From Escherichia coli (GTDB lineage Bacteria; Pseudomonadota; Gammaproteobacteria; Enterobacterales; Enterobacteriaceae), in the NCBI RefSeq assembly GCF_001677475.2, contig NZ_CP015229.1: DNA of 64,000 nucleotides; one strand, 5' to 3'. Positions 13,409-51,863 of the stretch are shown in pieces (positions within the stretch are counted from its first letter, which is position 1; every line of letters begins with the position of its first letter). Position numbers and translations under genes: made by a program. The notes below the pieces were generated by a model. The model was not told where the DNA came from and ran no database searches. It saw nothing but the letters and a program-made list of their open reading frames with translations.

Positions 13409-13921
13409 ATGCTTACAATGATATTTAACCGCCTGAAACTTGCGGTAGACCGCGTCATTGCCGCGTTTTCTGTCGCCGTAATGCTTGCTCTGGTTGTATG
13501 CGTAGTCTGGCAAGTATTTAGCCGCTACGTACTTAACCAGCCAAGTACATTAACCGATGAGCTGGCACGCTTTTTGATGATCTGGGTAGGATTATTAGGT
13601 GCTGCATATACCGTCGGCGCGCAGAGACATCTCTCTATCGATTTATTTGCTCTCGCCCTGAATAAGCGCAAGCAATTACTTCTTAGTATAGTCATTAACG
13701 TTCTTATTTTAGGTTTTGCCGGTTCGGTCATTGTGACTGGTGGCCTGAAATTAATTGATAAAACACTGGCAACATCACAGGTATCTGCCGCGATGCAAAT
13801 ACCGATGGGATACGTATATATCATTCTGCCATTAAGTGGATTGGTGATGATGTTTTATGCCTTGTGTTTTATTAATCAAAGCATTCAACAACTGAAACAA
13901 CCTGCGCAGGAGGCCAGTTAA
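13409..13921 (+). CDS. TRAP transporter small permease (DctQ family)
   Basis: 170 aa, four hydrophobic segments; position between the SBP and the large permease. Confidence 0.7.
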   Translation: MLTMIFNRLKLAVDRVIAAFSVAVMLALVVCVVWQVFSRYVLNQPSTLTDELARFLMIWVGLLGAAYTVGAQRHLSIDLFALALNKRKQLLLSIVINVLILGFAGSVIVTGGLKLIDKTLATSQVSAAMQIPMGYVYIILPLSGLVMMFYALCFINQSIQQLKQPAQEAS

Positions 13922-14507
13922 TGGATAGTTATATCGCGCTTACACTGTTTGGCTGTTTTTTTGTGCTGGTCTTTATTGGTGTGCCCATTTCGTTCTCAAT
14001 CGGTATTGCCACTGTAGCTTCAATGCTGTTGATGTTTCCCTGGGATATCGCGGCAATCACTGTTTCGCAGCGACTGGCTAATGGACTGGATAACTTTGCC
14101 CTATTGGCAATCCCCTTTTTCATCTTTGCCGGAACGCTGATGAACAGCGGCGGTATTGCGATACGTTTGATTAACCTCGCCCAGGTAATGGTTGGCCGCG
14201 TTCCTGGTTCGCTTGGTCATGTGAACGTCCTGGCGAATATGATGTTTGGTTCCATTTCTGGTTCAGCCGTTGCGGCAGCTGCTGCCGTTGGTGGCACACT
14301 GAATCCCATTCAGACCAAAGAAGGTTATGATCCGGCATTTTCTACCGCTGTAAACGTCTCATCCTGTATTACTGGATTACTGATACCGCCCTCAAACGTG
14401 TTAATTGTGTTTTCCCTGACAGCTGGCGGCGTTTCTGTAGCATCGCTATTTATGGCGGGATATTTGCCAGGGATCTTAATGGGTCTCGCGGTAATGGTTG
14501 TCTGCGC
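13921..14507 (+). pseudogene. TRAP large permease (DctM family), N-terminal fragment truncated by IS66
   Basis: 196-aa hydrophobic ORF whose stop codon is created by the IS66 end; the C-terminal continuation is found at 45325-46046 on the minus strand. Confidence 0.75.
14501..14507. repeat. 7-bp direct repeat TCTGCGC (target duplication of the IS66 insertion in dctM, left copy)
   Basis: Same 7 bp found in reverse complement at 46040-46046, abutting the other IS66 copy. Confidence 0.6.
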
Positions 14508-14592
14508 GTAAGCGTAAACCGACCGCCGTATGTAGCCATTAGACAAGAATTGGTAACTTAGACGCCCATCTGACACAGACGGACATCTAAGT

Positions 14593-15012
14593 ATGGAATT
14601 ACAGGACTGGCGAAAAGAACCTCGTAAAAAGTATTCGAATGAATTCAAACTTCGTATGGTTGAACTGGCATCACAACCCGGTGCTTGTGTGGCTCAGATT
14701 GCACGAGAAAATGGCGTCAATGATAATGTTATTTTCAAATGGCTCAGACTCTGGCAAAACGAAGGGCGTATATCACGGCGTCTTCCGGTGACAACCACTT
14801 CTGATGCAGGCCTTGAATTATTACCTGTAGAGATAACCTCTGATGAGCCGAAAGAACCGATGGCTGCTCTTACTCCGCCCTTATCCACTCAGACTACTGT
14901 CAGTGCCAGCTCCTGCAAGGTGGAGTTCCGTCACGGTAACATGACGCTGGAAAATCCTTCACCAGAGCTGCTCACTGTATTGATTCGTGAACTGACCGGG
15001 AGGGGAAGATGA
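14593..15012 (+). CDS. IS66 family accessory protein (orfA/TnpA)
   Basis: 139 aa with HTH-like N-terminus; first gene of the IS66 triad. Confidence 0.85.
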   Translation: MELQDWRKEPRKKYSNEFKLRMVELASQPGACVAQIARENGVNDNVIFKWLRLWQNEGRISRRLPVTTTSDAGLELLPVEITSDEPKEPMAALTPPLSTQTTVSASSCKVEFRHGNMTLENPSPELLTVLIRELTGRGR

Positions 15013-15359
15013 TCTCACTCCCATCCGGTACCCGTATCTGGCTCGTTGCCGGGATAACCGATATGCGTAAGTCTTTCAACGGGCTGGGTGAACAGGTACA
15101 GCATGTGTTAAATGTTAATCCCTTCTCCGGTCACCTGTTTATCTTCCGTGGCCGACGGGGTGACACCGTTAAAATTCTTTGGGCTGATGCTGATGGTCTG
15201 TGCCTGTTCACCAAACGCCTGGAGGAAGGCCAGTTTATCTGGCCTGCGGTGCGTGACGGTAAGGTATCCATTACCCGCTCGCAACTGGCAATGCTCCTCG
15301 ATAAGCTGGACTGGCGTCAGCCAAAAACATCCCGCCTTAACGCCCTGACAATGTTGTAA
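15009..15359 (+). CDS. IS66 family accessory protein (orfB/TnpB)
   Basis: 116 aa; ATGA overlap with orfA. Confidence 0.85.
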   Translation: MISLPSGTRIWLVAGITDMRKSFNGLGEQVQHVLNVNPFSGHLFIFRGRRGDTVKILWADADGLCLFTKRLEEGQFIWPAVRDGKVSITRSQLAMLLDKLDWRQPKTSRLNALTML

Positions 15360-15389
15360 AAAACGCCTGGCCGCATTATAAAAACGGCC

Positions 15390-16982
15390 ATGAGTCAGAA
15401 ATACCTCATTCGCATTGCAGAACTGGAAAGCCAGCTCCGTCAGAAAGACCAGCAACTGAGTCTGGTTGAAGAGACGGAGGCCTTCCTGCGCTCTGCACTG
15501 GCACGTGCCGAAGAAAAGATCGAAGAAGATGAACGGGAAATAGAACATCTGCGGGCTCAGATAGAAAAACTGCGCCGGATGCTGTTCGGTACCCGTTCTG
15601 AAAAACTGCGTCGTGAAGTTGAACAGGCTGAGGCCCTGCTGAAACAACGCGAACAGGACAGCGATCGTTACAGTGGGCGGGAAGACGATCCACAGGTTCC
15701 CCGCCAGTTGCGACAGTCGCGCCATCGTCGTCCGTTACCGGCACACCTTCCCCGTGAAATACACCGTCTGGAGTCTGAAGAAAGTTGTTGCCCGGAATGT
15801 GGCGGCGAGCTGGATTATCTGGGGGAAGTCAGTACTGAGCAGCTGGAACTGGTGAGCAGCGCCCTGAAAGTGATCCGCACAGAACGGGTAAAAAAAGCCT
15901 GTACAAAATGTGACTGCATCATTGAAGCACCGGCGCCGTCCCGCCCGATAGAGCGTGGTATCGCGGGCCCCGGATTACTTGCCCGCGTGTTAACGGGAAA
16001 ATACTGCGAACACCTGCCACTGTATCGTCAGAGTGAAATCTTTGCCCGACAGGGTGTCGAACTGAGCCGTGCATTACTCTCCAACTGGGTTGACGCGTGC
16101 TGCCAGTTAATGATGCCGCTGAATGATGCCCTGTACCGTTATGTGATGAATACCCGCAAGCTTCACACTGACGACACACCGGTAAAGGTACTGGCACCGG
16201 GCTTGAAAAAGACGAAAACAGGGCGCATCTGGACGTATGTCCGGGATGATCGCAATGCGGGTTCGTCATCTCCTCCGGCGGTCTGGTTCGCGTACTCACC
16301 GAACCGGCAGGGGAAACACCCGGAGCAACACCTCCGCCCCTTCCGGGGTATCCTGCAGGCGGATGCGTTCACAGGTTATGACAGGCTGTTCAGTGCAGAA
16401 CGTGAAGGTGGTGCGCTGACAGAAGTTGCGTGCTGGGCCCATGCCCGGAGAAAAATCCACGATGTATACATCAGCAGCAAAAGTGCGACGGCAGAAGAAG
16501 CCCTGAAGCGAATCAGTGAACTGTACGCCATCGAGGATGAAATACGGGGATTACCAGAGTCAGAGCGTCTTGCAGTCAGACAGCAGCGAAGCAAAGCGTT
16601 ACTGACGTCGCTGCATGAATGGATGGTGGAGAAGAATGGCACGCTGTCGAAAAAATCCAGACTGGGCGAAGCGTTCAGCTATGTACTGAATCAGTGGGAC
16701 GCCCTCTGTTATTACAGTGATGACGGACTGGCGGAGACGGACAATAACACAGCGGAAAGAGCGCTTCGTGCAGTCTGTCTTGGAAAGAAAAATTACGTGT
16801 TCTTCGGTAGCGATCACGGTGGCGAGCGTGGTGCACTGCTATACGGGCTGATCGGCACCTGCCGTCTGAACGGTATCGATCCGGAAGCGTATCTGCGCCA
16901 TATTCTGAGCGTACTGCCGGAATGGCCCTCCAACCGTGTTGACGAACTCCTGCCATGGAACGTGGTTCTCACCAATAAATAA
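15390..16982 (+). CDS. IS66 family transposase (TnpC)
   Basis: 530 aa with N-terminal coiled coil/leucine zipper, CxxC zinc-finger motifs and DDE-type core. Confidence 0.9.
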   Translation: MSQKYLIRIAELESQLRQKDQQLSLVEETEAFLRSALARAEEKIEEDEREIEHLRAQIEKLRRMLFGTRSEKLRREVEQAEALLKQREQDSDRYSGREDDPQVPRQLRQSRHRRPLPAHLPREIHRLESEESCCPECGGELDYLGEVSTEQLELVSSALKVIRTERVKKACTKCDCIIEAPAPSRPIERGIAGPGLLARVLTGKYCEHLPLYRQSEIFARQGVELSRALLSNWVDACCQLMMPLNDALYRYVMNTRKLHTDDTPVKVLAPGLKKTKTGRIWTYVRDDRNAGSSSPPAVWFAYSPNRQGKHPEQHLRPFRGILQADAFTGYDRLFSAEREGGALTEVACWAHARRKIHDVYISSKSATAEEALKRISELYAIEDEIRGLPESERLAVRQQRSKALLTSLHEWMVEKNGTLSKKSRLGEAFSYVLNQWDALCYYSDDGLAETDNNTAERALRAVCLGKKNYVFFGSDHGGERGALLYGLIGTCRLNGIDPEAYLRHILSVLPEWPSNRVDELLPWNVVLTNK

Positions 16983-17012
16983 GCGTCAATACGGTGCTCC
17001 GTTGACGCTTAC

Positions 17013-17020
17013 GGCCAGCG
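17013..17020. repeat. 8-bp target-site duplication GGCCAGCG of the IS66 insertion in IS629 (one copy)
   Basis: Identical 8 bp (as CGCTGGCC) abuts the other IS66 copy at 48552-48559. Confidence 0.8.
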
Positions 17021-17624
17021 ATACATACTGAGAACCTTTATCACTGTGATGGATTGTGCCGGACGGCCGACGGGCCCACAACGCCTGCTCCAGTGCATCC
17101 AGCACGAATGTTGTTTCCATGGATGATGAGACCTGCCATCCCACGATGTATCCGGCGAACACATCAATGATGAACGCCACATAAACGAAGCCCTGCCATG
17201 TGCTTACCCAGGTAAAATCAGCCACCCACAACTGGTCTGGACGTTCTGCCACGAACTGACGGTTTACGCGGTCGCATGCGGCAACGGCTTTCCGGCTGAC
17301 GGTAGTGCGGACCTTTTTACCCCGGAGAACACCGGCAAGTCCCATAACTGCCATGAGACGTGCCACAGTGCATCTGGCCACTCTGATACCTTCCCGTAAC
17401 AACTGACGCCAGACTTTACGCACACCGTATACCTGGTGATTTTCATCGTATACGCGCTGTATCTCTTTCTTCAGCCAGTCATCGTGCTGCGCACGGGCAC
17501 TGCGTTTATCCGGATGATGTCGCTGTTGCTGACAATGGTAATACGTTGACGGGGCAATATGCAGTTCGCTGCATACCGGTCCGACCCCGTACTGCTCACG
17601 CAGCTTATCCAGCAGTGGCATCAT
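17013..17624 (-). pseudogene. IS629 transposase orfB, N-terminal fragment interrupted by IS66
   Basis: IS3-family OrfB sequence ...HHSDKGSQYVSLA ends at the IS66 junction; the remainder YTQRLKEAG... is at 48560-48838. Confidence 0.8.
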
Positions 17625-17947
17625 TTTTTCCAGAGGCGGTCGAACTCCGCCTTCGCAAAATAAGCGGAAGCCTGGCGAAGGATATCGTTACTGCGGCGCA
17701 GTTCACGATTTTCACGTTCCAGCTCTTTCAGACGCTGACGTTCAGCGCTGGTGAGCCCACCATCACCGCCCCCGGTATCCCGCTCATGCTGGCGAACCCA
17801 GACACGCAGAGTCTCCGGCGTACAGCCAATCTTTGGGGCAATGGAACAAATTGCCGCCCACTGTGAGTCATATTCATCCTGACTTTCCAGAACCATACGA
17901 ATCGCCCGCTGACGGACTTCGGGGGAAAAACGAGTATTTTTAGTCAT
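17621..17947 (-). CDS. IS629 orfA (IS3 family transposase N-terminal protein)
   Basis: 108 aa, [22 protein letters not shown]... with leucine zipper; overlaps orfB in the -1 frame as in IS3 family. Confidence 0.85.
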
Positions 17948-18001
17948 CCTGTTTACCTCTTTCTCAGGGAGTTTAGTCTCCAGGATTTCCGGGGCGGTTC
18001 A

Positions 18002-18550
18002 GAGCAGCAACTCAGGGCGCTGCTGACACCCTCACCGGATGTGCTTTCAGCAGACCAGATGATGCAGCTCAGCAGAACACTGTTAAATCATGCGTCAGAG
18101 TGGATAACCCTTTCCGGTCAGCAGATAACGCGACTGACAGAATTCCCCCCGGCATACAACCTGCAACGCAGTGTGCAATTGCTGCAGCAACTGATGGTAC
18201 TTTTCCCCGACAATCCTCGTGTTCAGGAAATGGTGGATAACTGGCAGAAGAGTGCAAGGAGTCGTGCGCTCCCGGAAGAGGCGATGACTGGCTGGAACGA
18301 AGGCATGACCCGCTTACAGCTGTTGGCTGAGCGCCTGAACCGTCCAGATGAACAGCGGGGAAAATACATGACGGTCAGTGAGCTGAAAACGGAGGTGTCT
18401 GGCATCATGCAGGCTTTTAACCGGCATATCCTGGCAGAAGAACAGTTGTGTCACTATGGTGAAGTCCGCAACCAGAATGGAAGCGAGCAGCAGCAAAAAC
18501 AAATGAAAGATGCATTTGTTAAGCTGATTCATTTTTACTGTTTTATATAA
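18002..18550 (+). pseudogene. C-terminal part of a TssA/ImpA-like gene separated from its N-terminal part by IS629 and the inversion
   Basis: Reading frame is open from the IS629 end at 18002 and continues the frame that ends ...PAE at 48881 on the other IS629 flank. Confidence 0.4.
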
Positions 18551-18603
18551 AGCCTTTAGGATGTGGGGTAAGGGGAGTGTTGCAATTTATTCGGTGAGAT
18601 AGT

Positions 18604-19311
18604 TTGTTTGTGGAGTGTTTAAGCGCTTTTGGATGTTCGTCTGTTGTTTCGAATAGTATGGTGAATATGAATGGTAAATATAATGTCAGGAGTGAATTGT
18701 TAGCTCGTTGTATCGGAACTGGTAGATTGAAAGGAGATGTGAGAAGTGATTTTATTGGGTTTAATGGTAGTAAACAGGTAGGTTATGTTTTATTAACTTT
18801 ATTCTTAACGAAAGTAACAAATTCTGATTTGCTCTCTCATTATCGTATATTTAATCGTTTTTTGCATTATGAGAGAAAAGTTATGGACATATATAATTCT
18901 TTGAGTGATATAGAAGTTGATTGTATTTGCCAGGAAGTGATGGCTATATATGAACATACTCAGCGATGCTGCAACGAAAAGAAAATCACAACTATCCAGT
19001 TAGGCAGGAAACTTAATGGCAGGTATGCAGATACGATTGCTGAGTTAAAAGAAACAGCAGAGATAAGAGGGGAGGATGTGATTTCTTTTGAGATGGATAT
19101 ATTGAATTCTTTTAATGATGCGGATGAATATCACGGACGTGTTAAACTGGAGTTGGATATACCTGCTTCAGATATATTATATTGCCATGATTTTATTGAT
19201 TCAAAACATGTAAACTCCTGGTTGGTTGAACCACATGAGTGGGTGGTTATAAATCGTTCTCTCAATGGGATTGTTACAGTGCCAGTATCATCAATAAAGA
19301 TTCTTTATTGA
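18604..19311 (+). CDS. hypothetical protein (AT-rich island gene)
   Basis: 235-codon ORF in a markedly AT-rich segment; true start may be internal; no recognisable motif. Confidence 0.35.
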   Translation: MFVECLSAFGCSSVVSNSMVNMNGKYNVRSELLARCIGTGRLKGDVRSDFIGFNGSKQVGYVLLTLFLTKVTNSDLLSHYRIFNRFLHYERKVMDIYNSLSDIEVDCICQEVMAIYEHTQRCCNEKKITTIQLGRKLNGRYADTIAELKETAEIRGEDVISFEMDILNSFNDADEYHGRVKLELDIPASDILYCHDFIDSKHVNSWLVEPHEWVVINRSLNGIVTVPVSSIKILY

Positions 19312-19451
19312 TAAATATGTTTGTAATATGTTTTATATGTTCATCAGGATGAAAGTAAGCAATTTTAGTAGTGGCTAATTAAACGTCATTTAATGTTTGT
19401 TGCTATATGTTGAAAGCATAAACAGGTTTCTTTTGCATAAAGTAAAAATAA

Positions 19452-20684
19452 ATGAATGATAATTTTTTAACGGAGAAAGTCCTTACTGGAGAGAATGTTC
19501 TGCGTGCAGCAATTGCTCGTATTGAGTGGATTTTTGAAACATTTCCATCAGTTTGTCTCTCTTTTTCCGGTGGTAAAGATTCCACCGTGCTTTTCCATCT
19601 TGTGGCTGATGTGGCCCGCAGGAAAAGACGTCGTTTCTCTGTACTGTTCATTGACTGGGAGGCTCAGTACCAGTGCACCATTGAACATATTCAGAAGATG
19701 CGGGAAATGTACTATGATGTGACGGAAACCTTTTACTGGGTGGCGCTTCCCCTGACCACGGTAAACGGTGTCTCGCAGTTTCAACCGGAGTGGATATGCT
19801 GGGAGCCTCGTGTGACCTGGGTTCGCCAGCCACCGGAAGAGGCCATTACGGATATGGCGTATTTTCCCTTTTACCGGTATGCCATGGCGTTTGAAGAATT
19901 TGTTCCGGCATTTTCTTCCTGGTTTGCTGGCAACCGGTGTGGAGTGGCAGTGCTGACCGGTGTCCGGGCGGATGAATCCCTCAACCGCTTTATGGGACTG
20001 GTGTCCCAGCGCAAACTGAGATATGCCAATGATAAGCCTTGGACCACGGCATCGCCTGAAGGGTTTTACTACACTATGTATCCGCTGTATGACTGGAAAA
20101 CTCGTGATATCTGGATATATCACACCAGAACCCGTGCCATCTACAATCCCCTGTATGATCTGATGTACCGTGCCGGCGTACCGTTACGCAACATGCGTGT
20201 CTGTGAACCTTTTGGTCCTGAACAACGTAAGGGACTGTGGCTTTACCATGTTCTGGAACCGGAAACCTGGGCCAGGATGTGTGAGCGGGTGTCAGGGGCT
20301 GCCAGCGGGGCACTTTATGCCAATGAAAGCGGGGCTTATTTTGCCCTGCGTAAGCGCATATCAAAACCAGCCCATCATACCTGGCGCAGCTATGCGATGT
20401 TTCTGCTGGATGTGATGCCGGAAAGAACGGCAGAACATTACCGCAACAAGATAGCTGTCTATCTGCGCTGGTATCAGACGCGGGGCTTCCCGGATGACAT
20501 CCCGGATGAACAGGAGAATGACCTGGGGAGCCGGGATATTCCGTCCTGGCGACGTATCTGTAAGACTCTCATAAAGAATGATTTCTGGTGCCGTACCCTC
20601 TCCTTCAGTCCGAACAAACCCCGGCACTATGAACGTTATCTGCAGCGTATGAAAGAAAGGAGGAAGGAATGGGGGATTCTGTGA
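19452..20684 (+). CDS. ibrA: PAPS-reductase-like protein, IbrA-like (co-activator of prophage gene expression)
   Basis: 410 aa with SGGKDS PP-loop motif near the N-terminus; partnered with a ParB-like gene as in the described ibrAB pair. Confidence 0.75.
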   Translation: MNDNFLTEKVLTGENVLRAAIARIEWIFETFPSVCLSFSGGKDSTVLFHLVADVARRKRRRFSVLFIDWEAQYQCTIEHIQKMREMYYDVTETFYWVALPLTTVNGVSQFQPEWICWEPRVTWVRQPPEEAITDMAYFPFYRYAMAFEEFVPAFSSWFAGNRCGVAVLTGVRADESLNRFMGLVSQRKLRYANDKPWTTASPEGFYYTMYPLYDWKTRDIWIYHTRTRAIYNPLYDLMYRAGVPLRNMRVCEPFGPEQRKGLWLYHVLEPETWARMCERVSGAASGALYANESGAYFALRKRISKPAHHTWRSYAMFLLDVMPERTAEHYRNKIAVYLRWYQTRGFPDDIPDEQENDLGSRDIPSWRRICKTLIKNDFWCRTLSFSPNKPRHYERYLQRMKERRKEWGIL

Positions 20685-21307
20685 CACCGGAGATACTGAG
20701 CAACATGATTCGTCAGTACTTCAGCCAGGAACGACCAGAAGAAGAGGCCATACAGGCCCTGAATCATCTGCGCAGGGTGCTTCATGAGGTCAGTCCATTT
20801 GCACAGGAGCCTGTGGACTGTGTGCTGTGGGTGAAAGCAGATGAGGTGGTGGCCAACGATTATAACCCCAATGTCATGGCGCCGGGTGAGAAGAAACTGC
20901 TGAAACATTCACTGGAGCAGGATGGGTTCACGCAGCCTGTGGTTGTCTCGGAAGAGAAGGAGCATTATCTGGTCGTGGATGGTTTTCATCGTCAATTACT
21001 GGGCAGGGAAGCAGGTACGGGAAAACGCCTGAAGGGCTGGTTGCCAGTGACCTGTATTAATCCGGAAAGAAAGGGACAGGCCTCACGTATTGCTGCAACC
21101 ATTAGACATAACCGGGCCAGGGGGAAGCACCAGATAACTTCAATGTCTGATATTGTCAGGGACCTGTCGCGGCTGGGCTGGACGGATGAACGTATTGGTA
21201 CGGAGCTGGGTATGGACCAGGATGAAGTTCTCAGGTTGAAACAGATTAGCGGGCTGACGGAGCTGTTTCTGGAAGAGGATTTCAGTCCGGCATGGACGGT
21301 TCGCTGA
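20669..21307 (+). CDS. ibrB: ParB-like nuclease domain protein, IbrB-like
   Basis: 212 aa; overlaps the ibrA 3' end by 16 nt; ParB/Srx-type N-terminal region. Confidence 0.7.
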   Translation: MGDSVTPEILSNMIRQYFSQERPEEEAIQALNHLRRVLHEVSPFAQEPVDCVLWVKADEVVANDYNPNVMAPGEKKLLKHSLEQDGFTQPVVVSEEKEHYLVVDGFHRQLLGREAGTGKRLKGWLPVTCINPERKGQASRIAATIRHNRARGKHQITSMSDIVRDLSRLGWTDERIGTELGMDQDEVLRLKQISGLTELFLEEDFSPAWTVR

Positions 21308-21346
21308 GACCGTCATATATGTATATTATTTCAGTGAGTTAATGTT

Positions 21347-21655
21347 TTGAGCAGGAAAAAGAGTACCCCGGAAGTCGTGGAAGACATGGTTGCACAGAAG
21401 CTGGAGGCTGCGGGTTGCTGGCGCAGAGCTTCCGCCCGCTGGCTTTTTGTTATGGGAAATGTTGAATGTACAGAAGCACAACGGGAGTGGTTGTTGTTGC
21501 GCAGGAATTATTGCCTGGCGCAGATATCGTCCCCGCCGCTACCTGAAAAGCTGGATATCAGCGAAGTGGCGAAAGCTGCAGATGCCACGCTGAGGCGAAT
21601 GGGGATTGCCAGTCCGTCCGGGGAGGTATTCAGAAAAGGTACACCGGTCTGTTGA
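21347..21655 (+). CDS. hypothetical small protein (weak resemblance to PerC-family activators)
   Basis: 102 aa; LEAAGCWRRASARW segment resembles PerC/Pch-type proteins as I recall them; not verified. Confidence 0.35.
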   Translation: MSRKKSTPEVVEDMVAQKLEAAGCWRRASARWLFVMGNVECTEAQREWLLLRRNYCLAQISSPPLPEKLDISEVAKAADATLRRMGIASPSGEVFRKGTPVC

Positions 21656-21675
21656 TATTCAGGTAACAGGTATTA

Positions 21676-22320
21676 ATGATAAAGAAAGGAATGGCAAACA
21701 GTATATCAATGACATGGCAACTTTTATGCGATGATCATGGTTTTACCCGGGAGCACTACAATCAGCTGAAGAAATTCAGCCCGGAGGCATTACGTGAAAT
21801 TATTGCTGAAATAGCCTGCTGCCATCCGTCAACCAGTATATTGCTCAGGAATAAGTGGCTGACACCGCCGGAGGATATTCCGGAGCAGGTTACCCGTGAA
21901 TACGAACGAAGAATACAGAACTGTCCATCTTTCAGGAGCGAGAAAGAGGCGGAATCCTGGCTAAATGAACTGTTTTTTGCTGTGATTGCGCCGCTATACC
22001 GGGTTGTCCCCGGACAATCAGAACAGGTTGAATCCTTTGTTCTGCAGCTTATTGCCGAACAGGAGCGGGTTTGGGAGCTTATTCTAACCAATGATGGTTA
22101 TTCATGGCATTGCGCACTTTATGATATATTATTTCATCTGGTTTTACGAAATATGGAAGACCAGCCTGAACATCAGAGACAGCGAATAACAAAAATACTT
22201 AATGAGTCCGATACAAGGCGGGTTGCAGAAGAGATTAAATTCCGGATTCAATATCTTCAGGATGAAGAACAAAAGAGAGTTTTAAGTGAGTTGGTAAATG
22301 TCCTGATTTCAAAAAGATAA
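21676..22320 (+). CDS. hypothetical protein
   Basis: 214-codon ORF co-directional with ibrAB; no recognisable motifs. Confidence 0.4.
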   Translation: MIKKGMANSISMTWQLLCDDHGFTREHYNQLKKFSPEALREIIAEIACCHPSTSILLRNKWLTPPEDIPEQVTREYERRIQNCPSFRSEKEAESWLNELFFAVIAPLYRVVPGQSEQVESFVLQLIAEQERVWELILTNDGYSWHCALYDILFHLVLRNMEDQPEHQRQRITKILNESDTRRVAEEIKFRIQYLQDEEQKRVLSELVNVLISKR

Positions 22321-22384
22321 AACATGTCGGAGTAATTTTTCTATATATTAAAAAAACAGGTTCGTATTACCATAAAGGAGATCG

Positions 22385-22708
22385 GTGAGTAACCGTTATT
22401 GGATGATCTCCTTCCATAAAAATACGCGCAATCTAACGGTTTGCTCTGTGCCAAAAAAAGACATTGCTCACAATATCGAGTTAATCATTCGGCCGTTGAA
22501 CATTCCCATTGAAAAATTTCTCAGTATAGAATATACCAATGTTGAGGGCATTCCTCTTACATCTCGAAGGATAACTATCATGGGTCTAAAACCAGGTCCA
22601 AAACCAATTGCTAAGTCAACAGGAAAACCGGATCAACGCCGACGCGATAATAAAGATACTCCTGGCAATACTCCGGGATTAAAGCCAAGTAAGTCCACAG
22701 GTAAGTAA
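22385..22708 (+). CDS. hypothetical protein
   Basis: 107-codon ORF with a Pro/Lys/Gly-rich C-terminus; convergent with the helicase gene. Confidence 0.3.
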   Translation: MSNRYWMISFHKNTRNLTVCSVPKKDIAHNIELIIRPLNIPIEKFLSIEYTNVEGIPLTSRRITIMGLKPGPKPIAKSTGKPDQRRRDNKDTPGNTPGLKPSKSTGK

Positions 22709-22755
22709 AAAATAAGGGTATAAATACTTATTTATACCCTGACTACATATCCAGT

Positions 22756-24954
22756 CTACTGAAGGTGTTTCTGCAGCCAGATGCACGTTCCTTTTATATC
22801 ATACGCCTGTGCCCCATACCCTTTAGCAAGCAAAGTCTCTGGTAAATACTCGTCATATTTATCCAGATACTTGTCGGGAACAACTGCAGCAAGCTCAAAC
22901 TCTGAAGGTAGCCCCGACAATAGCATTTTCTTAAGTGCACGCTGGACAGAGGCAACGCCTGAGTCCTCTACCTCTATCACACCTGCAAATGAACTGGCTT
23001 TAAAGCCACAACGTATAATCAGGGACGTAATTGTATTGACAATTTTATCCCCCATCCACGGGATCACGTAGCAGTTCTGACCACTGGCAATAAAACAGTC
23101 ATTTTGTAGATTGTAGCGTTGGAAGTTGTCACTTCCTTCCGCGAAGAGGCTTCTGGCTGCGGCATCAGCATAATCGACTCTCTTGTTGCCTACCGCGATA
23201 CGGTAATCATTTTCCCTGTAGATAGTGAGCATTTCCTGGCGAACAACATCATGAACAGACATCCCGGTACCACTGAATAGTGGCGGCTGACCGCCTTTAG
23301 TCGTCTCAACATAGATAACCTTTTTTTCAACCTCGATCTCTGTCACTTTCCAGCGCCGTCCGCCGAAGATGATGTGCTGCTCCGGCAAAAGTGGGGAGTC
23401 TACAGGCACTGTGCCAAGAGTTCGGTTTCCCGTTACAATGCGAAACTCCTCAGGTGTATTGAATACGGCATAAAACGTGTAGTGATTAGTCAGCTTCTCC
23501 CCCTCAGCCCCGACAACTATTTCACCGCTGGTTAGTTGAGTGAGCAGGCCACATGTCCCCATATGTTTAAGCAGACTTTTGAAGTCATTTATATCCACAT
23601 TCCGGAACGGACCTGTCTGGCAAAGTTGTGACCAGAGCTGATCGGCACGAACACCTCCCCATTGCGCAGTAATAGCCAGGATCTGGTGTAGTAGTGTGGA
23701 GTAATGTTTCTGCCGGATATCTGCAGGCTCGAACCAGCGCTTAGAGATCATCAACCTGATCATTGCCATCGCCTGAACCAACTGCAGCCGTAAATGATCC
23801 ACAATGCTGCTGGTTGCGGTAAGTTCAGGTTCAGTAATTAACATTCTCAGCACCGATGGGGAATCGCGCCGCCCTGAACGTCCCATGCGTTGACGCAGAC
23901 TGGAAACAGAATGCGGAGGTGTCACTTGTATGACAGACTGCACCTTACCAATATCAATACCCAGCTCCAGCGTCATTGTACAAACAGCGGTTGTGGGCAA
24001 ATTCCCTTTCTGCAGTCGGGCTTCAAGCGCCTCACGCAACTCCCTTGCAAGGGAACCATGATGAGGAAAGAATTCATTAGGAACGACATTTGCTTCACAC
24101 ATGTCGCTCAGTGTTGCCGCTATGCTTTCAGTACGCTTTCGACTGTTAGCAAAGACCAGGTGGGAATCGCCACGGCAGAGCCTGAAAATATCCGCGCAGA
24201 CGAGCTGTTCAGCAGAGCTCTGGAGCTCTTCTCCTTTTTCGGGCACCCGCTCAAGATAACCTTTAACCTGAACCTGTAGTGTGGCTTTGCTATTACTGTC
24301 TGTTACCGTTTCACAAGGTAATCTCTTATCCGGGCGCAATAGTTCTGGTACTTTTTCCAGCTCTCCCAGCGTGGCACTCAACGCGACACGGGGAACTGGA
24401 TTCAACTGGCGTCCCAGCACATGGTCAATTCTGTTAAGCAGAGAAAGCAGCTGTATACCACGCTCTGAGCCAATAAAAGCATGGAACTCATCAATAACAA
24501 TGTATGCCACAGAAGAAAACGCCTGTTTGAGCCAACCCAATGAGTTTATGAGCAAAGACTCAAGTGATTCAGGTGTGATAAGTAAGATGCCAGAAGGGGT
24601 TGTCCGTGCTTTCTTCTTTTTGCTTTGTGGTACATCCCCGTGCCAGGGCGTCACTTGCATTTCCAGGGCTTCACCAAGACTCTCAAGACGACGGTGTTGA
24701 TCGTTAATTAATGCCTTCAATGGACTGATATAGATAATGCCAAATCCACCAGTGAGATCTGCAATCGCTGAACAGGCAGGAAGAAAGAAAGCCTCTGTTT
24801 TACCCGCAGCTGTACCTGCACTAATTAGTACATCACGATCACGGGCTAAAATTGCCGGAATAGAGCTTTCCTGCAAGGGCCTTAAGGATGACCAGCCCTG
24901 CTTATAAACCCACTTACGGACACGGGGATCAAGACTATTGTAGGCACTACTCAT
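22756..24954 (-). CDS. SF2 DExH-box helicase (Lhr-like), third gene of a candidate defence operon (SngC-like)
   Basis: 732 aa with motif I AGTAAGKT, motif II DEFH, motif III SAT, motif VI QRMGRSGRR; ATGA start/stop overlap with the upstream ATPase gene. Confidence 0.8.
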   Translation of the reverse strand: MSSAYNSLDPRVRKWVYKQGWSSLRPLQESSIPAILARDRDVLISAGTAAGKTEAFFLPACSAIADLTGGFGIIYISPLKALINDQHRRLESLGEALEMQVTPWHGDVPQSKKKKARTTPSGILLITPESLESLLINSLGWLKQAFSSVAYIVIDEFHAFIGSERGIQLLSLLNRIDHVLGRQLNPVPRVALSATLGELEKVPELLRPDKRLPCETVTDSNSKATLQVQVKGYLERVPEKGEELQSSAEQLVCADIFRLCRGDSHLVFANSRKRTESIAATLSDMCEANVVPNEFFPHHGSLARELREALEARLQKGNLPTTAVCTMTLELGIDIGKVQSVIQVTPPHSVSSLRQRMGRSGRRDSPSVLRMLITEPELTATSSIVDHLRLQLVQAMAMIRLMISKRWFEPADIRQKHYSTLLHQILAITAQWGGVRADQLWSQLCQTGPFRNVDINDFKSLLKHMGTCGLLTQLTSGEIVVGAEGEKLTNHYTFYAVFNTPEEFRIVTGNRTLGTVPVDSPLLPEQHIIFGGRRWKVTEIEVEKKVIYVETTKGGQPPLFSGTGMSVHDVVRQEMLTIYRENDYRIAVGNKRVDYADAAARSLFAEGSDNFQRYNLQNDCFIASGQNCYVIPWMGDKIVNTITSLIIRCGFKASSFAGVIEVEDSGVASVQRALKKMLLSGLPSEFELAAVVPDKYLDKYDEYLPETLLAKGYGAQAYDIKGTCIWLQKHLQ

Positions 24955-26267
24955 AATCTGAAATTCGCCAGGCCATCATCGTCATCACTTTCCTCCACAA
25001 TGGCATCATCCATATCGCTGAGCTTGTCTTCTTCAATCGCCACCCCCTCAATGAGGGTTTGCCAGTTCATCGTTCTGTTTTGTTCCAGCACAGCCAGCAT
25101 ATCCAGAAAACCTTTTATGGTATTGCGGGGAGTTCGAAAGTAAGCATCTCCGATGGTTTTGCTGCAGTGATGCAGAAACCCGGTCAGAGCATCATCTGGC
25201 ACCAGATAATTTGCGGGATCTCCACCAGCATAAACATGACGAAGGTTTTTCAGTAAAATATACAGTTCCTCAGGAGTGAGGCTGGCAAGATGCAGCGTGG
25301 GGGACGAGTAGTCAATCACGCCAGCTTTCTGTGCGAATCGGTTTTCTGCCAGACGCGACTGGAGCGCTTCATAGCTGTAGAGCCCCTTACGTGGATCGAA
25401 AAGAAATTCTGGCGTCCCCCCGAGGATAAAACCAATATTTTCGGCGGAGCCTTGCAGGCAGTCATTCAGGATCCGCAAAATTTGTTCGTAGTTGGCCGTT
25501 CTCGCTTGCGTATTATTCAACTTGAAGAGGTTCACCATCTCGTCGAGGCTAACTAAAAGTCCGGCATAGCCTGCCTGACGGACAAAAAGGCTCATCAACT
25601 TCAAAGAATCATAGAACGAGGCGTCTGAGATAATCGTTCGGACGTCAAGATCATTACGGGCATCAGTTTTTGTGGTGTACTCGCCCCGCAACCAGCGAAT
25701 AGCATTGGATTTTAAGGTTTCGTTATCCTGCTCATGCCCGCGCCAGAATGCGTCAATGACCTTCGCAAAGTCATATCCTCCCACCATATCTGACAAAGCA
25801 GCAAGGCGTTTATGAATAACGGATGAGACCAGGGAGCCGTTCGCATCAGCTTCCTTCCTTGCCTCAGTAACAAACCTTTCCACAACGCTAAGTAATGCAT
25901 TGCCATCTGGTTTGTTTCTGGTGGACATATTTTTCATAAGCTCTGAGTAGAGATTACGAGCCTGACCTCCCGATGAGTGGATACGTCTGTCGGGAGAAAG
26001 GTCTGCACTGACCGTGACCAGCTTCTTCTCTAACGCAATAGACCGTACAACACTTAAAAAGAATGTTTTCCCGGAACCGTACTCACCAATGATAAGTCTG
26101 AAGCTTGCCCCGCCATCAGCAATCCGTTCAATATCCTGATGGAGGGCGGTTATCTCATTCACGCGGCCAACCTGGATATGCTGAATACCTATTCTTGGCG
26201 TTACTCCCGACTTAAGTGACTGAATGATAGCGTCGCGCTCTTTCACTCTTATACGTGTTACAGACAT
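24951..26267 (-). CDS. P-loop ATPase, second gene of the candidate defence operon (SngB-like)
   Basis: 438 aa with Walker A GEYGSGKT and Walker B-like LLVSLDEM; acidic C-terminus. Confidence 0.8.
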   Translation of the reverse strand: MSVTRIRVKERDAIIQSLKSGVTPRIGIQHIQVGRVNEITALHQDIERIADGGASFRLIIGEYGSGKTFFLSVVRSIALEKKLVTVSADLSPDRRIHSSGGQARNLYSELMKNMSTRNKPDGNALLSVVERFVTEARKEADANGSLVSSVIHKRLAALSDMVGGYDFAKVIDAFWRGHEQDNETLKSNAIRWLRGEYTTKTDARNDLDVRTIISDASFYDSLKLMSLFVRQAGYAGLLVSLDEMVNLFKLNNTQARTANYEQILRILNDCLQGSAENIGFILGGTPEFLFDPRKGLYSYEALQSRLAENRFAQKAGVIDYSSPTLHLASLTPEELYILLKNLRHVYAGGDPANYLVPDDALTGFLHHCSKTIGDAYFRTPRNTIKGFLDMLAVLEQNRTMNWQTLIEGVAIEEDKLSDMDDAIVEESDDDDGLANFRL

Positions 26268-26270
26268 TCA

Positions 26271-28580
26271 CTAACCCTCTAATTCTTTGGCTATTTCCAG
26301 GTCAATCCAAATGTGATCATCAGCATCTTCCAGCACTGGTGCATCAACCACCGCATAGGACCAATCGTTAATCACCTCAAGCGCACCGCCGAGCATCAGG
26401 TTCCAGTTACTACACAACTCTGTCGCCTCTTTTCTGGACCATTGTTCTTTCTCCAGCAACCTGCGATAAAGTTGGCTATGAGCGGAGTCAAGTCCCCCTT
26501 CCCCGGTTAATGAGGCTGGAGCGCTTTCTGGTTGTTCTGGTTCTTCTTCAGTGAAAATTGAGTTCAGTAATTTACGAACATCATCAGTGGCAGATTCGTG
26601 GCGGGCAAGTACGTTGGCATCCAGCGTAAACCCTGCCGTCGACTGATTAGCTGGTACAGATGAAACGAGAGCAGTTTCAGTTGCGGAATGCTGATGGATA
26701 TTGCTTGATACGGATGAGGGATCCAGTCCCAGGCTTGTATAAATCTTCTCAAGCTGTTTGATTTCGGCAGGCGTAATTCTGCCGTCAGAGCAAGCGACAC
26801 TAACGATAACCTTACCCACAGCTGATTTTTCCGCTGCACCGAGTAATTCAATCCGGCTTTTCATTCCCGTCATATTCGCCGGAGTATGAAGCTGCCACGT
26901 TAAATATGCGTGCAGAGAGCGCTTTTCATCATCGCTGAAGCTGGCATTGTTGTTGATGGCATTCTCAAGCACTTTCTGTTCGGCTTGATCGAGAGAATTG
27001 TCAATCAAGGCGACTACCGAACCTAATCGGAGCGTCAATACAGCTGTGATAAATTCAGGAGAAGGTGAGAAACGTCCTCTTTCACCAGCAGGGAATAAAA
27101 CAAGTACACCATCGACATCTGCCTTTACGTGGTGGTGATAGGGGTCAGGAGCCAGACAGTATCCCATTTTCTGTGCAAAGGCTTGCATTAAGTCGGCCTC
27201 TTTTTTATTGATCTTCGCCGGACAGGTGGCATTCATATGTGACCAGTAGTCAGCAACTGAAACTATCCCACCCTTACTGCGGATTGCGTCATCAGCCCAG
27301 TGTTTGAATGTACTTAATATTTTTTCTGCGCTTTCGTTAACGATTTCTGAAGGCAGCAACAAAATTGCAGCGGTATCATTTGCTGAAGTACCTTTTCTAC
27401 CAAGGTAACGACTGTAAGCATCCAGTTCACCTGTGCATATATCGGCAATGGCCATAAGCTTCTGAACAGGGCCTTTCAATGCACCTGGATCAGGCAAGTC
27501 GGGAACAGGAAGCCGAATACCTCGCAAACTGGGACTTGCAGGCGTGTAATCTAAACGCAGACGCGCTTTATTCGGCTTCACTACCATCCCTTCACCGTAT
27601 TTAAGGGTGTAACGCCGTTTAAATAGTGCAGCAAATTCTTTCGCACAGCGGCGGGCGGGGGTTCGTAATGAGTATTCAGCATGGTTTGTCACCCACGTCA
27701 GAGCCAGATCCGCTGGAACCGGGGCTCCTGTATCAACAGTCTTTGCCAGGATTAACCTGAACTGCATGCTATTGCTGAACTCCGAATCATCGTTGAGAGC
27801 TGCTGCAAGATTTTCGTTCGGACGAAGAATGGACATCGCTTCAAGTAACTGGGATGAGTAATTCCGGAAAGATCGGTTTTCATTGAAAACCGATCTGAGA
27901 CGGCAGATCTCTTTGAAAAGAGAATAGAACTCATCGTCGGATATATTGTTGTCCCTGCTGTCAACAAGCGCCCTTCTTTCCAGACCATACAGATAAATGA
28001 AAACGTAACCAATTGGGCAGGAAGTGTCGCATCTGTCGCTGGCAAGCCAACTCAGGTACGCACCACGAGCTTCAGGTGAAAGTGAGGAAAAACTGGGCCA
28101 ATACCCTAATGAACTATCTTCGTAAATGTAAGGTGTGGGGGATATTTTAAGCGTGTCGTCAACTAGCGATGCCTCGTTATTGCCATCATAATAACCGCCT
28201 GAGTTATGCCCGGCAGGTTTCATACGCTGCCCAAGATAGAAGTGACCGCCGGTAACCTCTATCCCACTGACTGTGATCATCTCTCCCGGAAAAATCCAAC
28301 GAGCCAAAGCACCGGTAGTTTTTGAGAAATTCTGGCGTTGAGTGGCTGTTATGCTGTATTCGACATTCCGCCCGCCACTTAGTGTAAACGTAGCCAGATT
28401 GTCATCTTCGCTGTCCTCGTTTTGCATTACAGACTGATTTTTTTTGTTGTTAGCAAGCCATTCTTTAGGTGGTGCTTTCACAGGAGCGGAAGTATAAGAG
28501 CCCGCGGACTTAGTTTTCTTCTTTTTGAAAAAAAGAATATAAATCAAATAAATAGCTACTATAAATATCCATAACTCCAT
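26271..28580 (-). CDS. large N-terminally membrane-anchored protein, first gene of the candidate defence operon (SngA-like; TerB domain not verified)
   Basis: 769 aa; N-terminal hydrophobic helix MELWIFIVAIYLIYILFF followed by KKKK; 3-nt spacing to the ATPase gene. Confidence 0.7.
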   Translation of the reverse strand: MELWIFIVAIYLIYILFFKKKKTKSAGSYTSAPVKAPPKEWLANNKKNQSVMQNEDSEDDNLATFTLSGGRNVEYSITATQRQNFSKTTGALARWIFPGEMITVSGIEVTGGHFYLGQRMKPAGHNSGGYYDGNNEASLVDDTLKISPTPYIYEDSSLGYWPSFSSLSPEARGAYLSWLASDRCDTSCPIGYVFIYLYGLERRALVDSRDNNISDDEFYSLFKEICRLRSVFNENRSFRNYSSQLLEAMSILRPNENLAAALNDDSEFSNSMQFRLILAKTVDTGAPVPADLALTWVTNHAEYSLRTPARRCAKEFAALFKRRYTLKYGEGMVVKPNKARLRLDYTPASPSLRGIRLPVPDLPDPGALKGPVQKLMAIADICTGELDAYSRYLGRKGTSANDTAAILLLPSEIVNESAEKILSTFKHWADDAIRSKGGIVSVADYWSHMNATCPAKINKKEADLMQAFAQKMGYCLAPDPYHHHVKADVDGVLVLFPAGERGRFSPSPEFITAVLTLRLGSVVALIDNSLDQAEQKVLENAINNNASFSDDEKRSLHAYLTWQLHTPANMTGMKSRIELLGAAEKSAVGKVIVSVACSDGRITPAEIKQLEKIYTSLGLDPSSVSSNIHQHSATETALVSSVPANQSTAGFTLDANVLARHESATDDVRKLLNSIFTEEEPEQPESAPASLTGEGGLDSAHSQLYRRLLEKEQWSRKEATELCSNWNLMLGGALEVINDWSYAVVDAPVLEDADDHIWIDLEIAKELEG

Positions 28581-28990: not shown

Positions 28991-29208
28991 CCGCTTTATC
29001 TCGTGCTGTTTTGGTCTTAATACTTCCATGCCGCTGCGATTACCTCTTAAACCCGCCCTTACCATTTTTATGGGTACGATAAGAAAACTTTATCGGGCAC
29101 GATCGATTTTATCGATCGATTCGATCGAAAACATTCCTTTTACCCTATCTTTTGCATGGTTTTAGAATGAGCAACCCCATTTATCGTTCGGGGAAAGTGA
29201 TAGCGGAG

Positions 29209-29958
29209 ATGATTGAAATGAATAAGGTTATTGCGGTTTCAGCGCTTGCCATGGCAGGCATGTTTTCGACCCAGGCTCTGGCTGATGAGAGCAAAACAGG
29301 CTTTTATGTGACCGGTAAAGCAGGTGCTTCTGTTATGTCACTTGCAGACGAGCGTTTCCTGTCGGGTGATGGAGAGGAAACATCAAAATATAAAGGCGGT
29401 GATGGCCATGATACGGTATTCAGTGGCGGTATCGCGGCCGGTTATGATTTTTACCCGCAGTTCAGTATTCCGGTTCGTACGGAACTGGAGTTTTACGCTC
29501 GTGGAAAAGCTGATTCGAAGTATAACGTAGATAAAGACAGCTGGTCAGGCGGTTACTGGCGTGATGACCTGAAGAATGAGGTGTCAGTCAACACACTGAT
29601 GCTGAATGCGTACTATGACTTCCGGAATGACAGTGCATTCACACCATGGGTATCTGCAGGGATTGGCTACGCCAGAATTCACCAGAAAACAACCGGTATC
29701 AGTACCTGGGATTATGGGTACGGAAGCAGTGGTCGCGAATCGTTGTCACGTTCAGGCTCTGCTGACAACTTCGCATGGAGCCTTGGCGCGGGTGTCCGCT
29801 ATGACGTAACCCCGGATATCGCTCTGGACCTCAGCTATCGCTATCTTGATGCAGGTGACAGCAGTGTGAGTTACAAGGACGAGTGGGGCGATAAATATAA
29901 ATCAGAAGTTGATGTTAAAAGTCATGACATCATGCTTGGTGTGACTTATAACTTCTGA
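29209..29958 (+). CDS. putative outer-membrane beta-barrel protein
   Basis: Signal peptide (…AMAGMFSTQALA), alternating beta-strand-like pattern, C-terminal ...LGVTYNF with terminal Phe. Confidence 0.55.
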   Translation: MIEMNKVIAVSALAMAGMFSTQALADESKTGFYVTGKAGASVMSLADERFLSGDGEETSKYKGGDGHDTVFSGGIAAGYDFYPQFSIPVRTELEFYARGKADSKYNVDKDSWSGGYWRDDLKNEVSVNTLMLNAYYDFRNDSAFTPWVSAGIGYARIHQKTTGISTWDYGYGSSGRESLSRSGSADNFAWSLGAGVRYDVTPDIALDLSYRYLDAGDSSVSYKDEWGDKYKSEVDVKSHDIMLGVTYNF

Positions 29959-45285: not shown

Positions 45286-45326
45286 TTTGCCGGATAATAT
45301 AAAAGTTATCCGGCAAATTATTTTTT
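45286..45326. terminator. terminator hairpin after yggM
   Basis: GCCGGATAA...TTATCCGGC followed by a T-run. Confidence 0.6.

Positions 45327-50075: not shown

Positions 50076-51863
<1,788 letters not shown>

Follow-up and report, generated by a model that had tools for sequence, protein, structure and literature searches.

The four co-directional genes that we followed up in a 64,000-nucleotide stretch of Escherichia coli DNA (the window) are a known, already annotated and common ibrA-ibrB-pchD cassette, with one orphan gene behind it. The finding itself is ordinary. In the explanation that we favor overall, and hold with moderate confidence, this island-borne cassette with its phage-derived enzyme pair would work by IbrB bringing the pair to DNA, where IbrA would spend ATP, through adenylate-forming chemistry, on a DNA-associated substrate; in E. 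coli, silenced genes of horizontal origin would be de-repressed as the outcome, PchD being a putative co-regulator. IbrA/IbrB does not look like a phosphorothioation enzyme, a PAPS reductase, a partition ParB or a recognized defense system. The genes lie as follows.

19452-20684, plus strand: ibrA, 410 amino acids from an ATG, PP-loop ATP pyrophosphatase.
20669-21307, plus strand: ibrB, 212 amino acids from an ATG, ParB/sulfiredoxin fold with a C-terminal HTH-like segment.
21347-21655, plus strand: pchD-type perC, 102 amino acids from the TTG at 21347 (the RefSeq start, ATG 21386, gives 89 amino acids).
21676-22320, plus strand: 214-amino-acid orphan ORF (ORF214, the ECs_1389 orthologue), predicted to be all helical.

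These coordinates, taken from the ORF list, match exactly the layout described in the first-pass annotation (co-directional ORFs of 410, 212, 102 and 214 amino acids, the first two overlapping by 16 nt). The overlap, at 20669-20684, makes translational coupling of ibrA and ibrB likely, and the start of ORF214 only 20 nt after perC makes their co-transcription probable. No terminator-like sites were found between the four genes, the first such hairpin downstream of the cassette being at 22715-22740. All four ORFs are real genes and not chance ORFs. When they were compared with their Sakai, BN01 and UTI89 orthologues, dN/dS was 0.05-0.09 for ibrA, 0.06-0.08 for ibrB, 0.13-0.22 for perC and 0.36 for ORF214; in E. 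coli, ibrA and ibrB are under strong purifying selection. Across 17900-22900, a promoter scan gave no signal above shuffled background, no Rfam families were present, and no parS-like or other notable repeats were found in or near the cassette. The upstream neighbor is a 235-amino-acid ORF (18604-19311); we considered whether it and ORF214 might be paralogues flanking an insertion, but no similarity between them was detected.

The identification of the pair as IbrA/IbrB, which had been made from the letters alone, has held up. An orthologous run is present in the SpLE1 island of O157 Sakai, where ECs_1386-1389 are annotated as ibrA, ybdM, pchD and a hypothetical gene. IbrA shares 94.6% amino acid identity with ECs_1386, which is named ibrA in RefSeq, and IbrB shares 94.8% with ECs_1387 (named ybdM), while a protein identical to the window's IbrB carries the RefSeq label "IbrB-like domain-containing protein." Gene order, the 16-nt overlap and the lengths of 410 and 212 amino acids are all the same in Sakai, and pchD and ECs_1389 follow the pair as they do in the window; the islands differ, being SpLE1 in Sakai and a pheV (tRNA-Phe) island with Shango here. 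On the basis of annotation, we take the pair probably to match the tested IbrA/IbrB alleles of E. coli ECOR-9 as well. In work by Sandt, Hopper and Hill from 2002, ibrA and ibrB reportedly act in trans, switching on prophage eib genes. Our full-text literature search returned mentions of IbrA/IbrB at the annotation level only, the 2002 primary study being outside its coverage.

The cassette is widespread in E. coli. Its DNA is 99.8-100% identical in hundreds of genomes; ibrAB-like DNA occurs in approximately 2170 of 5426 complete genomes (ca. 40%), and 969 complete genomes cover the four-gene cassette to 80% or more. In the other E. coli contexts examined, it is found beside adhesin, fimbria and siderophore genes in virulence or fitness islands. 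Core-genome paralogues also exist: K-12 YbdN and YbdM are, like IbrA and IbrB, a PAPS-reductase/DUF3440 protein and a ParB-like protein encoded in one operon (PMC9068703), although ybdNM is chromosomal, conserved and without a PerC gene, whereas the window cassette is island-borne and present in ca. 40% of strains. The LysR regulator YbdO/CitR, encoded next to ybdNM in K-12, represses the pair, and the regulator's gene is itself reportedly under H-NS control (PMC9068703). Enterobacterial loci situated between methionine aminotransferase and ahpF genes encode proteins with 60-62% identity to IbrA.

In the window, the cassette has IS elements, a type VI secretion system (T6SS) remnant and a Shango system on its two sides. 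The Shango system is complete, with its three genes in one operon.

22756-24954, minus strand: SngC (PADLOC, 9e-278).
24951-26267, minus strand: SngB (PADLOC, 2e-186).
26271-28580, minus strand: SngA (PADLOC, 3e-99).

The cassette is convergent with sngC at a distance of 436 nt, a layout found in approximately 445 genomes, and this arrangement might suggest that the four genes are a new anti-phage defense system or an accessory of Shango. We consider this very improbable. Shango is not near the same cassette in SpLE1, UTI89, BN01 or a virulence plasmid; no effector-like gene is linked to it; and phages, both lytic and temperate, themselves carry the pair. PADLOC v2 gave no matches for IbrB, PerC or ORF214 and only sub-threshold, partial matches for IbrA, and it has no model for the pair. 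Apart from the adjacency of Shango, then, we found no support for the defense role that the first-pass annotation had envisaged.

IbrA is predicted to be an intact enzyme of the PP-loop ATP pyrophosphatase/adenylyltransferase type, its helical DUF3440 domain being specific to the family. Its Pfam matches are PAPS_reduct followed by DUF3440 (1.5e-24), and its two parts are as follows.

IbrA residues ~1-240: PAPS-reductase/FAD-synthase/CysD-like fold.
IbrA residues ~240-410: all-helical DUF3440.

The SGGKDS PP-loop occupies residues 39-44. It and the other IbrA motifs are invariant in 34 representatives with 27-55% identity, and all 12 family-invariant residues are kept in the window's protein. 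That enzyme motifs are so strictly conserved would be unexpected if the protein were only a co-activator. In a sequence search of solved structures, the PP-loop of FAD synthase was the sole match to IbrA, and nothing credible was found for DUF3440. FAD synthase (the eukaryote-type FMN adenylyltransferase) and CysD act on small-molecule substrates and, unlike IbrA, have neither DUF3440 nor a ParB-like partner. There is no invariant cysteine in a diverse alignment of the IbrA family; C251 is conserved in ca. 91% of close homologues and lost in diverse ones. We rejected the PAPS reductase CysH as an identity for IbrA on two grounds, a score of 36 bits against a TIGR02057 cut-off of 254 and this lack of an invariant cysteine, CysH having a catalytic one at its C terminus.

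Membership of the PP-loop ATP pyrophosphatase superfamily is what IbrA shares with DndC, SspD and BrxP, and by analogy a role on DNA is plausible. A Dnd-, Ssp- or BREX-4-like phosphorothioation of DNA, such as the DndC/SspD-like sulfur role first suggested for the pair, is another matter: we regard it as already largely refuted and its residual probability as minimal. In its favor are the common fold superfamily and weak partial matches of IbrA to BrxP (3.3e-7, in the PP-loop region only) and DndC (1e-4). However, the BrxP match amounts to 26.9 bits and aligns IbrA residues 20-98 with positions 117-197 of a 779-position profile, no domain passes in the PADLOC DndC match (19.5 bits), and the DndC model TIGR03183 scores 14.9 bits against a cut-off of 290.4. 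IbrA has no SspD match, the sole Ssp match being a faint one of SspC to SngB (E = 0.0086). A cysteine dyad is characteristic of DndC, and BrxP contains a Cys-rich region of Fe-S-like type (PMC12839542), whereas the IbrA family lacks such cysteine features. The partner genes are missing too: dndA/B/D/E and sspA/B/C are not linked, cysteine desulfurase, DndD/E and SspB/C were not recognized among the scanned neighbors, none of these recurs in 79 species-level IbrA loci (described below), and a test for PglZ, BrxC and BrxL was negative, the neighbors best fitting Shango.

The sequence of IbrB points to a ParB/sulfiredoxin fold followed by an HTH-like tail. The protein matches PHROG 2159 strongly (1.4e-81) and Pfam ParB_N weakly (0.013), and a profile of its family matches the structures of Noc (7ol9; 1.3e-6) and ParB (4umk), Spo0J, SbnI and free serine kinase being weaker matches. 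It does not look like a partition ParB/Noc CTPase clamp: DGFHR stands in place of the canonical GERRxRA nucleotide motif, the Noc model (the only NCBIfam match) reaches 19.5 bits where the cut-off is 315, and parA is not adjacent. PADLOC gave zero matches. The comparison with ParB- and DpdB-like proteins that the first-pass annotation had proposed was negative at the level of family models: partition-ParB models failed, and neither DndB nor DpdB was matched in the NCBIfam and PADLOC scans, so that we rejected these two identities as well. In its fold, IbrB resembles the members of the ParB/Srx group that lie outside partition (DndB with its DGQHR, DpdB, sulfiredoxin, SbnI/free serine kinase and VirB), with which it has in common the ParB N-domain and, at the GERR position of ParB, a motif of the DGxHR type. 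Three IbrB motifs are invariant in the family, NDYNPN (residues 63-68), DGxHR (104-108) and RHNRARGxH (146-154); compared with DndB and DpdB, the first and the last are IbrB's own.

The two downstream ORFs had been described as having no assignable function, which is right for ORF214 and wrong for the 102-amino-acid ORF. The latter matches Pfam PerC (PF06069; 6e-36) over residues 11-100, at model positions 2-89 of 90, and its product has 96.6% amino acid identity to Sakai PchD (ECs_1388; dN/dS 0.13); it is a predicted PerC-family regulator and PchD orthologue. Its position directly after ibrB is the same as that of pchD in EHEC. The linkage of this gene to ibrB is tight: the ibrB-pchD junction occurs in 1025 genomes, against 1052 that have the gene, so that ca. 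97% of E. coli pchD-type genes directly follow ibrB. Conversely, about half of the E. coli ibrAB carriers have a dedicated pchD-type PerC gene directly after the pair. PchD belongs to the group 2 Pch proteins of the PerC family; PerC and PchA/B/C are required for ler/LEE expression, whereas PchD is dispensable for it and has been called elusive in function (PMC6265319). In published tests of pchD on its own, LEE, curli and biofilm were hardly or not clearly affected (PMC6265319). That pchD-type genes lie nearly always directly after ibrAB may explain the lack of a clear function for pchD tested alone. The linkage of pchD to ibrB, the CitR-repressed ybdNM paralogues and the adhesin, fimbria and siderophore contexts together form a regulatory setting that supports the favored explanation.

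Membership of ORF214 in the ibrAB module, by contrast, is doubtful as far as its sequence relatives indicate. Its homologues are confined to Escherichia, and those at 54-56% identity follow a T6SS VasL gene without ibrAB or perC; ibrAB loci without ORF214 also occur. The occurrence of homologues beside a T6SS remnant in the absence of ibrAB implies that ORF214 is not an obligate partner of the pair. No credible match to it was found in Pfam, NCBIfam, PHROG, PADLOC or the PDB (a dTALE match in the solved-structure sequence search was spurious), and its AF2 model is poor (pLDDT 63, pTM 0.52).

Beyond E. coli, ibrA and ibrB form an obligate, usually overlapping pair. An IbrB homologue was present in 78 of 79 species-level IbrA loci across phyla, the single miss being at a contig end; these loci were gathered with a narrow alignment and are biased toward closer relatives. 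In 76 of the 79, ibrB follows ibrA on the same strand, and the ORFs overlap in 41. The pair ranges from Enterobacteriaceae to Clostridia, Bacteroidota and a Heimdallarchaeal (Asgard) virus, and 224 phage records contain it. In Escherichia phage PhiR5_2, it has 91% amino acid identity and adjoins antirepressors; Streptococcus Brussowvirus phages encode the pair as well. A GNAT-like protein is encoded in 36 of the 79 loci (in one, it is fused to IbrA), and 13 have an SNF2 helicase gene upstream, a helicase that also accompanies the pair in phages; in actinophages, a Bacillus phage and Flavobacterium phages, the neighbors include methyltransferase and terminase/portal genes. Partners of these kinds suggest ATP-dependent, DNA-directed chemistry rather than sulfur insertion, and the recurrence of a GNAT-like third partner in other phyla points to a multi-step modification pathway. 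Of the DNA-modification or defense-related role originally offered for the cassette, the sulfur and defense parts are not supported, while some other DNA-directed enzymatic role has been somewhat strengthened by this comparative genomics.

These findings bear on an alternative that we regard as unlikely but worth weighing, namely, that the pair is a phage-derived module for modifying DNA bases or backbone without sulfur, and that its transcriptional effect in E. coli is a by-product. IbrB would load on DNA, IbrA would adenylate a position, and a nucleophile would replace the AMP, with GNAT, where present, adding an acyl group; the modification might shield DNA from restriction or mark self DNA. 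The universality of the pair and the invariance of the enzyme motifs across phyla argue for this, as do the GNAT, SNF2 and methyltransferase partners and the packaging genes that adjoin the pair in phages. There are also precedents: DndC, SspD and BrxP are PAPS-reductase-like enzymes that act on DNA, and ParB-methyltransferase fusions exist (a phrog_498 match). A further precedent is DpdB, a ParB-like ATPase (PMC12839542). On the other hand, no DNA modification is known in cassette-carrying E. coli strains, the E. coli cassette encodes no nucleophile-supplying partner, and a restriction-type effector was linked in 0 of the 79 loci. This alternative overlaps our favored explanation rather than excluding it. 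The strict motif conservation, which counts against the favored explanation, may mean that the primary function lies elsewhere, for example, in phage DNA modification, with the transcriptional effect secondary; the results for pchD alone, the lack of parS-like repeats and the dispensability of the cassette in one strain also weigh against that explanation.

It is improbable, in our view, that the two proteins are purely transcription factors, with IbrB a VirB-like, spreading anti-silencer of the ParB family and IbrA non-catalytic or merely nucleotide binding. In the literature and in record annotations, gene activation is, as far as is known, the sole reported phenotype, and IbrB's ParB N-domain and HTH-like tail, like the PerC-family activator alongside, would suit such a role. 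Against it, the PP-loop and the substrate-side motifs of IbrA are complete and invariant down to 27% identity, IbrB's DGFHR stands where such a ParB would have its nucleotide motif, and the pair is also carried by virulent phages, for which silencing is not an evident problem.

A broader and more speculative proposal, which we consider doubtful, is that IbrA-IbrB is a widespread, phage-derived, ATP-dependent marker of DNA or of a DNA-bound protein, working by sulfur-free adenylate chemistry and extended elsewhere by GNAT, SNF2 or methyltransferase partners, and that in E. coli islands the pair, joined by its dedicated partner PchD, uses the mark to counter-silence horizontally acquired genes. 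If true, sulfur-free marking with PchD would supply PchD's missing function. As for the window itself, it holds a common, annotated island module for which the sulfur and defense readings can be dropped. The wider IbrA/IbrB family is a real gap, an enzyme pair distributed from Enterobacteriaceae to an Asgard virus and present in ca. 40% of complete E. coli genomes, and as ybdNM in K-12.

Two apparently natural IbrA-IbrB fusions (P0150 and P0151), which join an IbrB N terminus to an IbrA C terminus, resemble products of deletion or chimeras from metagenomes, and they were set aside. In one strain, ibrB is interrupted by an IS element, which implies that the cassette is dispensable.

We found the four co-directional ORFs between 19452 and 22320 to be as the first-pass annotation had described them in coordinates, lengths, overlap and SGGKDS motif. 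Judged from strong family matches together with dN/dS against orthologues (0.05-0.09 for ibrA, 0.06-0.08 for ibrB, 0.13-0.22 for perC and 0.36 for ORF214), they are genuine genes.

19452-20684, + strand: ibrA, 410 aa, SGGKDS at residues 39-44
20669-21307, + strand: ibrB, 212 aa, overlapping ibrA by 16 nt
21347-21655, + strand: pchD-type perC, 102 aa from a TTG (RefSeq start, ATG at 21386)
21676-22320, + strand: ORF214, 214 aa

Between ibrB and perC there are 39 nt, or 78 nt if the RefSeq start is used, and between perC and ORF214 20 nt; no terminator-like site was found between the four genes, the first one 3' of the cassette being a hairpin at 22715-22740. Also 3' of the cassette, in a region of ca. 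40% GC, is a 107-aa ORF (22385-22708) with a basic Lys/Pro-rich tail; it has no family match, is hypothetical in RefSeq and has no counterpart in the Sakai cassette.

The cassette is already known and annotated. Its DNA is 99.8% identical to a segment in many E. coli genomes, and its orthologues in O157:H7 Sakai (ECs_1386-1389, in the phage-like element SpLE1) are annotated as ibrA, ybdM, pchD and hypothetical. Among 5426 complete E. coli genomes, about 2170 contain ibrAB-like DNA and 969 contain at least 80% of the four-gene cassette. The earlier interpretation stands as regards the known ibrA/ibrB pair; it fails for the third ORF, said to have no assignable function, which matches the Pfam PerC family at 6e-36 and whose product is 96.6% identical in amino acids to Sakai PchD. 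By these measures it is a PerC-family regulator, the PchD orthologue. pchD belongs to Pch group 2; ler/LEE expression is independent of it, and its function has been called elusive (PMC6265319). Of the complete E. coli genomes, 1052 cover at least 80% of the pchD-type gene and 1025 have the junction of the ibrB 3' end with perC, so that about 97% of pchD-type genes lie directly 3' of ibrB. This near-constant linkage may be the reason for the unclear phenotype of pchD tested alone in published work. BN01 has a second, diverged ibrAB lineage (79% nucleotide identity) with a perC gene and without ORF214.

Scanning one genome per species with a narrower alignment, and hence with a bias towards closer relatives, gave 79 loci spanning Enterobacteriaceae, Lentisphaerae, Bacteroidota, Clostridia, Bacilli, Helicobacter and one Heimdallarchaeote. 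All but one (78) encode an IbrB homologue, the exception being truncated by a contig end; ibrB lies downstream of ibrA on the same strand in 76, with overlapping ORFs in 41. IbrA is an intact PP-loop enzyme under selection, obligately paired with a ParB/sulfiredoxin-fold protein. PerC, ORF214, the 107-aa ORF and a 235-aa ORF upstream of ibrA occur in none of the 79. Enterobacterial loci with methionine aminotransferase and ahpF genes on either side represent the core pair ybdNM, repressed in K-12 by YbdO/CitR (PMC9068703). An SNF2-type helicase is encoded just upstream in 13 loci, and a GNAT-like protein, some 130 aa long (about 125-140), recurs in 36 as a third partner of IbrA/IbrB (e.g., L059 7309-7695; L-numbers are loci in other genomes and phages).

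GNAT-like loci: L033, L043-L045, L048-L053, L055, L057, L059-L068, L071-L074, L077-L080, L087-L091

Its gene sits between ibrA and ibrB in Firmicutes (Clostridia, Bacilli); in Bacteroidales (Bacteroides, Dysgonomonas) it lies upstream of ibrA. The protein is fused once to the IbrA N terminus (L050 5704-7440) and is missing from the E. coli cassette; one copy matches RimI at 1e-9. Two metagenome representative proteins, P0150 and P0151, join the IbrB N-terminal domain to the IbrA C-terminal (DUF3440) region, and may be deletion derivatives of ibrB-then-ibrA loci or assembly chimeras.

IbrA homologues also occur in 224 phage records, Streptococcus phages included; that of Escherichia phage PhiR5_2 is 91% identical in amino acids and has antirepressors adjoining. 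Packaging genes adjoin the pair in several phages (L092-L095), either with the pair directly before the large terminase, as in Mycobacterium phage Bernardo (L092), or near the portal, as in Flavobacterium phage FCL-2 (L093: helicase, IbrB, IbrA, small ORF, portal). In these phages the pair is often accompanied by further ParB-like genes, an SNF2 helicase or a methyltransferase, the last in Arthrobacter phage Salgado (L094) and Bacillus phage 055SW001 (L095). The pair originates from phage, and its E. coli version is linked to a PerC-family regulator.

IbrB matches PHROG 2159 at 1.4e-81 and Pfam ParB_N only marginally; its family profile matches Noc (1.3e-6) and ParB, with weaker matches to Spo0J and to two ParB-fold kinases, SbnI and free serine kinase. 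Among 31-79 homologues, NDYNPN (63-68), E74, S81, G86-x-T88-x-P90, D104-G-x-H-R108 and R146-H-N-R-A-R-G152-x-H154 are invariant, as is an HTH-like motif, GM..DE..RL.Q..GL, in the C-terminal tail. IbrB has DGFHR where ParB has the GERR nucleotide motif, and DGFHR resembles both DGQHR of DndB and GCHR of sulfiredoxin; no match to the DndB or DpdB models was obtained. Motif conservation this high suggests that IbrB has an active site and not a DNA-binding surface alone.

In the proposed mechanism, IbrB would target DNA, IbrA would use ATP for adenylate chemistry on a substrate associated with DNA, and the outcome would be de-repression of horizontally acquired genes. Sandt et al. are said to have reported in 2002 that ibrA and ibrB together activate prophage eib genes in trans, and SEED-type annotation of phage records likewise gives activation of eib genes. 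A purely noncatalytic co-activator seems unlikely given that the motifs are conserved. The main rival takes DNA modification as the primary purpose and regulation as a side effect, and the present data cannot separate it from the regulatory reading. The sequence evidence effectively excludes phosphorothioation.

A defence role had also been proposed for the cassette. It draws its one support from a complete Shango anti-phage system that is convergent with the cassette (22756-28580, - strand); Shango is, however, absent from the other contexts of this cassette.

22756-24954, - strand: SngC, PADLOC 9e-278
24951-26267, - strand: SngB, PADLOC 2e-186
26271-28580, - strand: SngA (TerB domain), PADLOC 3e-99
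29152-29958: Adr-like outer-membrane protein, just inside the island end
30110-31609: phosphoethanolamine transferase, just inside the island end
31928-33193, - strand: tyrosine integrase of the island
33391-33466, - strand: tRNA-Phe, the integration site, adjoining the integrase
14508-17012 and 46047-48551: IS66-family copies, 2505 nt each, 100% identical, inverted
16986-17947, - strand: IS3-family remnant upstream of the cassette (orfA 17621-17947, orfB 16986-17624)

The pheV-type genomic island in which the cassette lies ends at the integrase and tRNA-Phe. In E. coli MLI104K2 (L098 16667-19843), ibrB is interrupted by ISEc23 (IS66 family) and the Shango genes are frameshifted, so both modules decay in some lineages. 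The IS66 copies bracket 29,034 nt (cassette, Shango, integrase, tRNA-Phe and core genes yqgA to yggM), and TRAP dctM is split across them, 13921-14511 covering profile positions 1-173 and 45325-45951 (- strand) positions 205-405; together these point to an IS66-mediated inversion. IS3 orfB stops at the end of the first IS66 copy.

ORF214 matches no Pfam, NCBIfam, PHROGs or PADLOC family and nothing credible in the PDB, and its AF2 model is all-helical at low confidence. Homologues occur only in Escherichia, the most diverged (54-56% identity) directly 3' of a T6SS ImpA/VasL gene, which TssE/F/G/J genes and a NERD-UvrD helicase precede; neither ibrAB nor perC was found near these three.

L006 4399-5040 and L007 4159-4800: ORF214 homologues, each followed by capsule kps genes
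L009 7001-7660: ORF214 homologue
18041-18550: VasL-domain fragment upstream of ibrA in the window
18604-19311 (RefSeq 18667-19311): 235-aa ORF upstream of ibrA, low GC, no family

Because its homologues follow VasL without ibrAB, and because the window itself retains a VasL fragment, ORF214 is suggested to be part of the backbone of a T6SS remnant, with ibrAB-perC set inside it. UTI89, Nissle, EC958, BN01 and a Klebsiella-type virulence plasmid have ibrAB but lack ORF214. Between ibrA and the IS3 remnant lie the VasL fragment and the 235-aa ORF (18041-19311). In other genomes a NERD/UvrD-like gene is found 5' of them; here that gene is at 50076-51863 (- strand), past the second IS66 copy.
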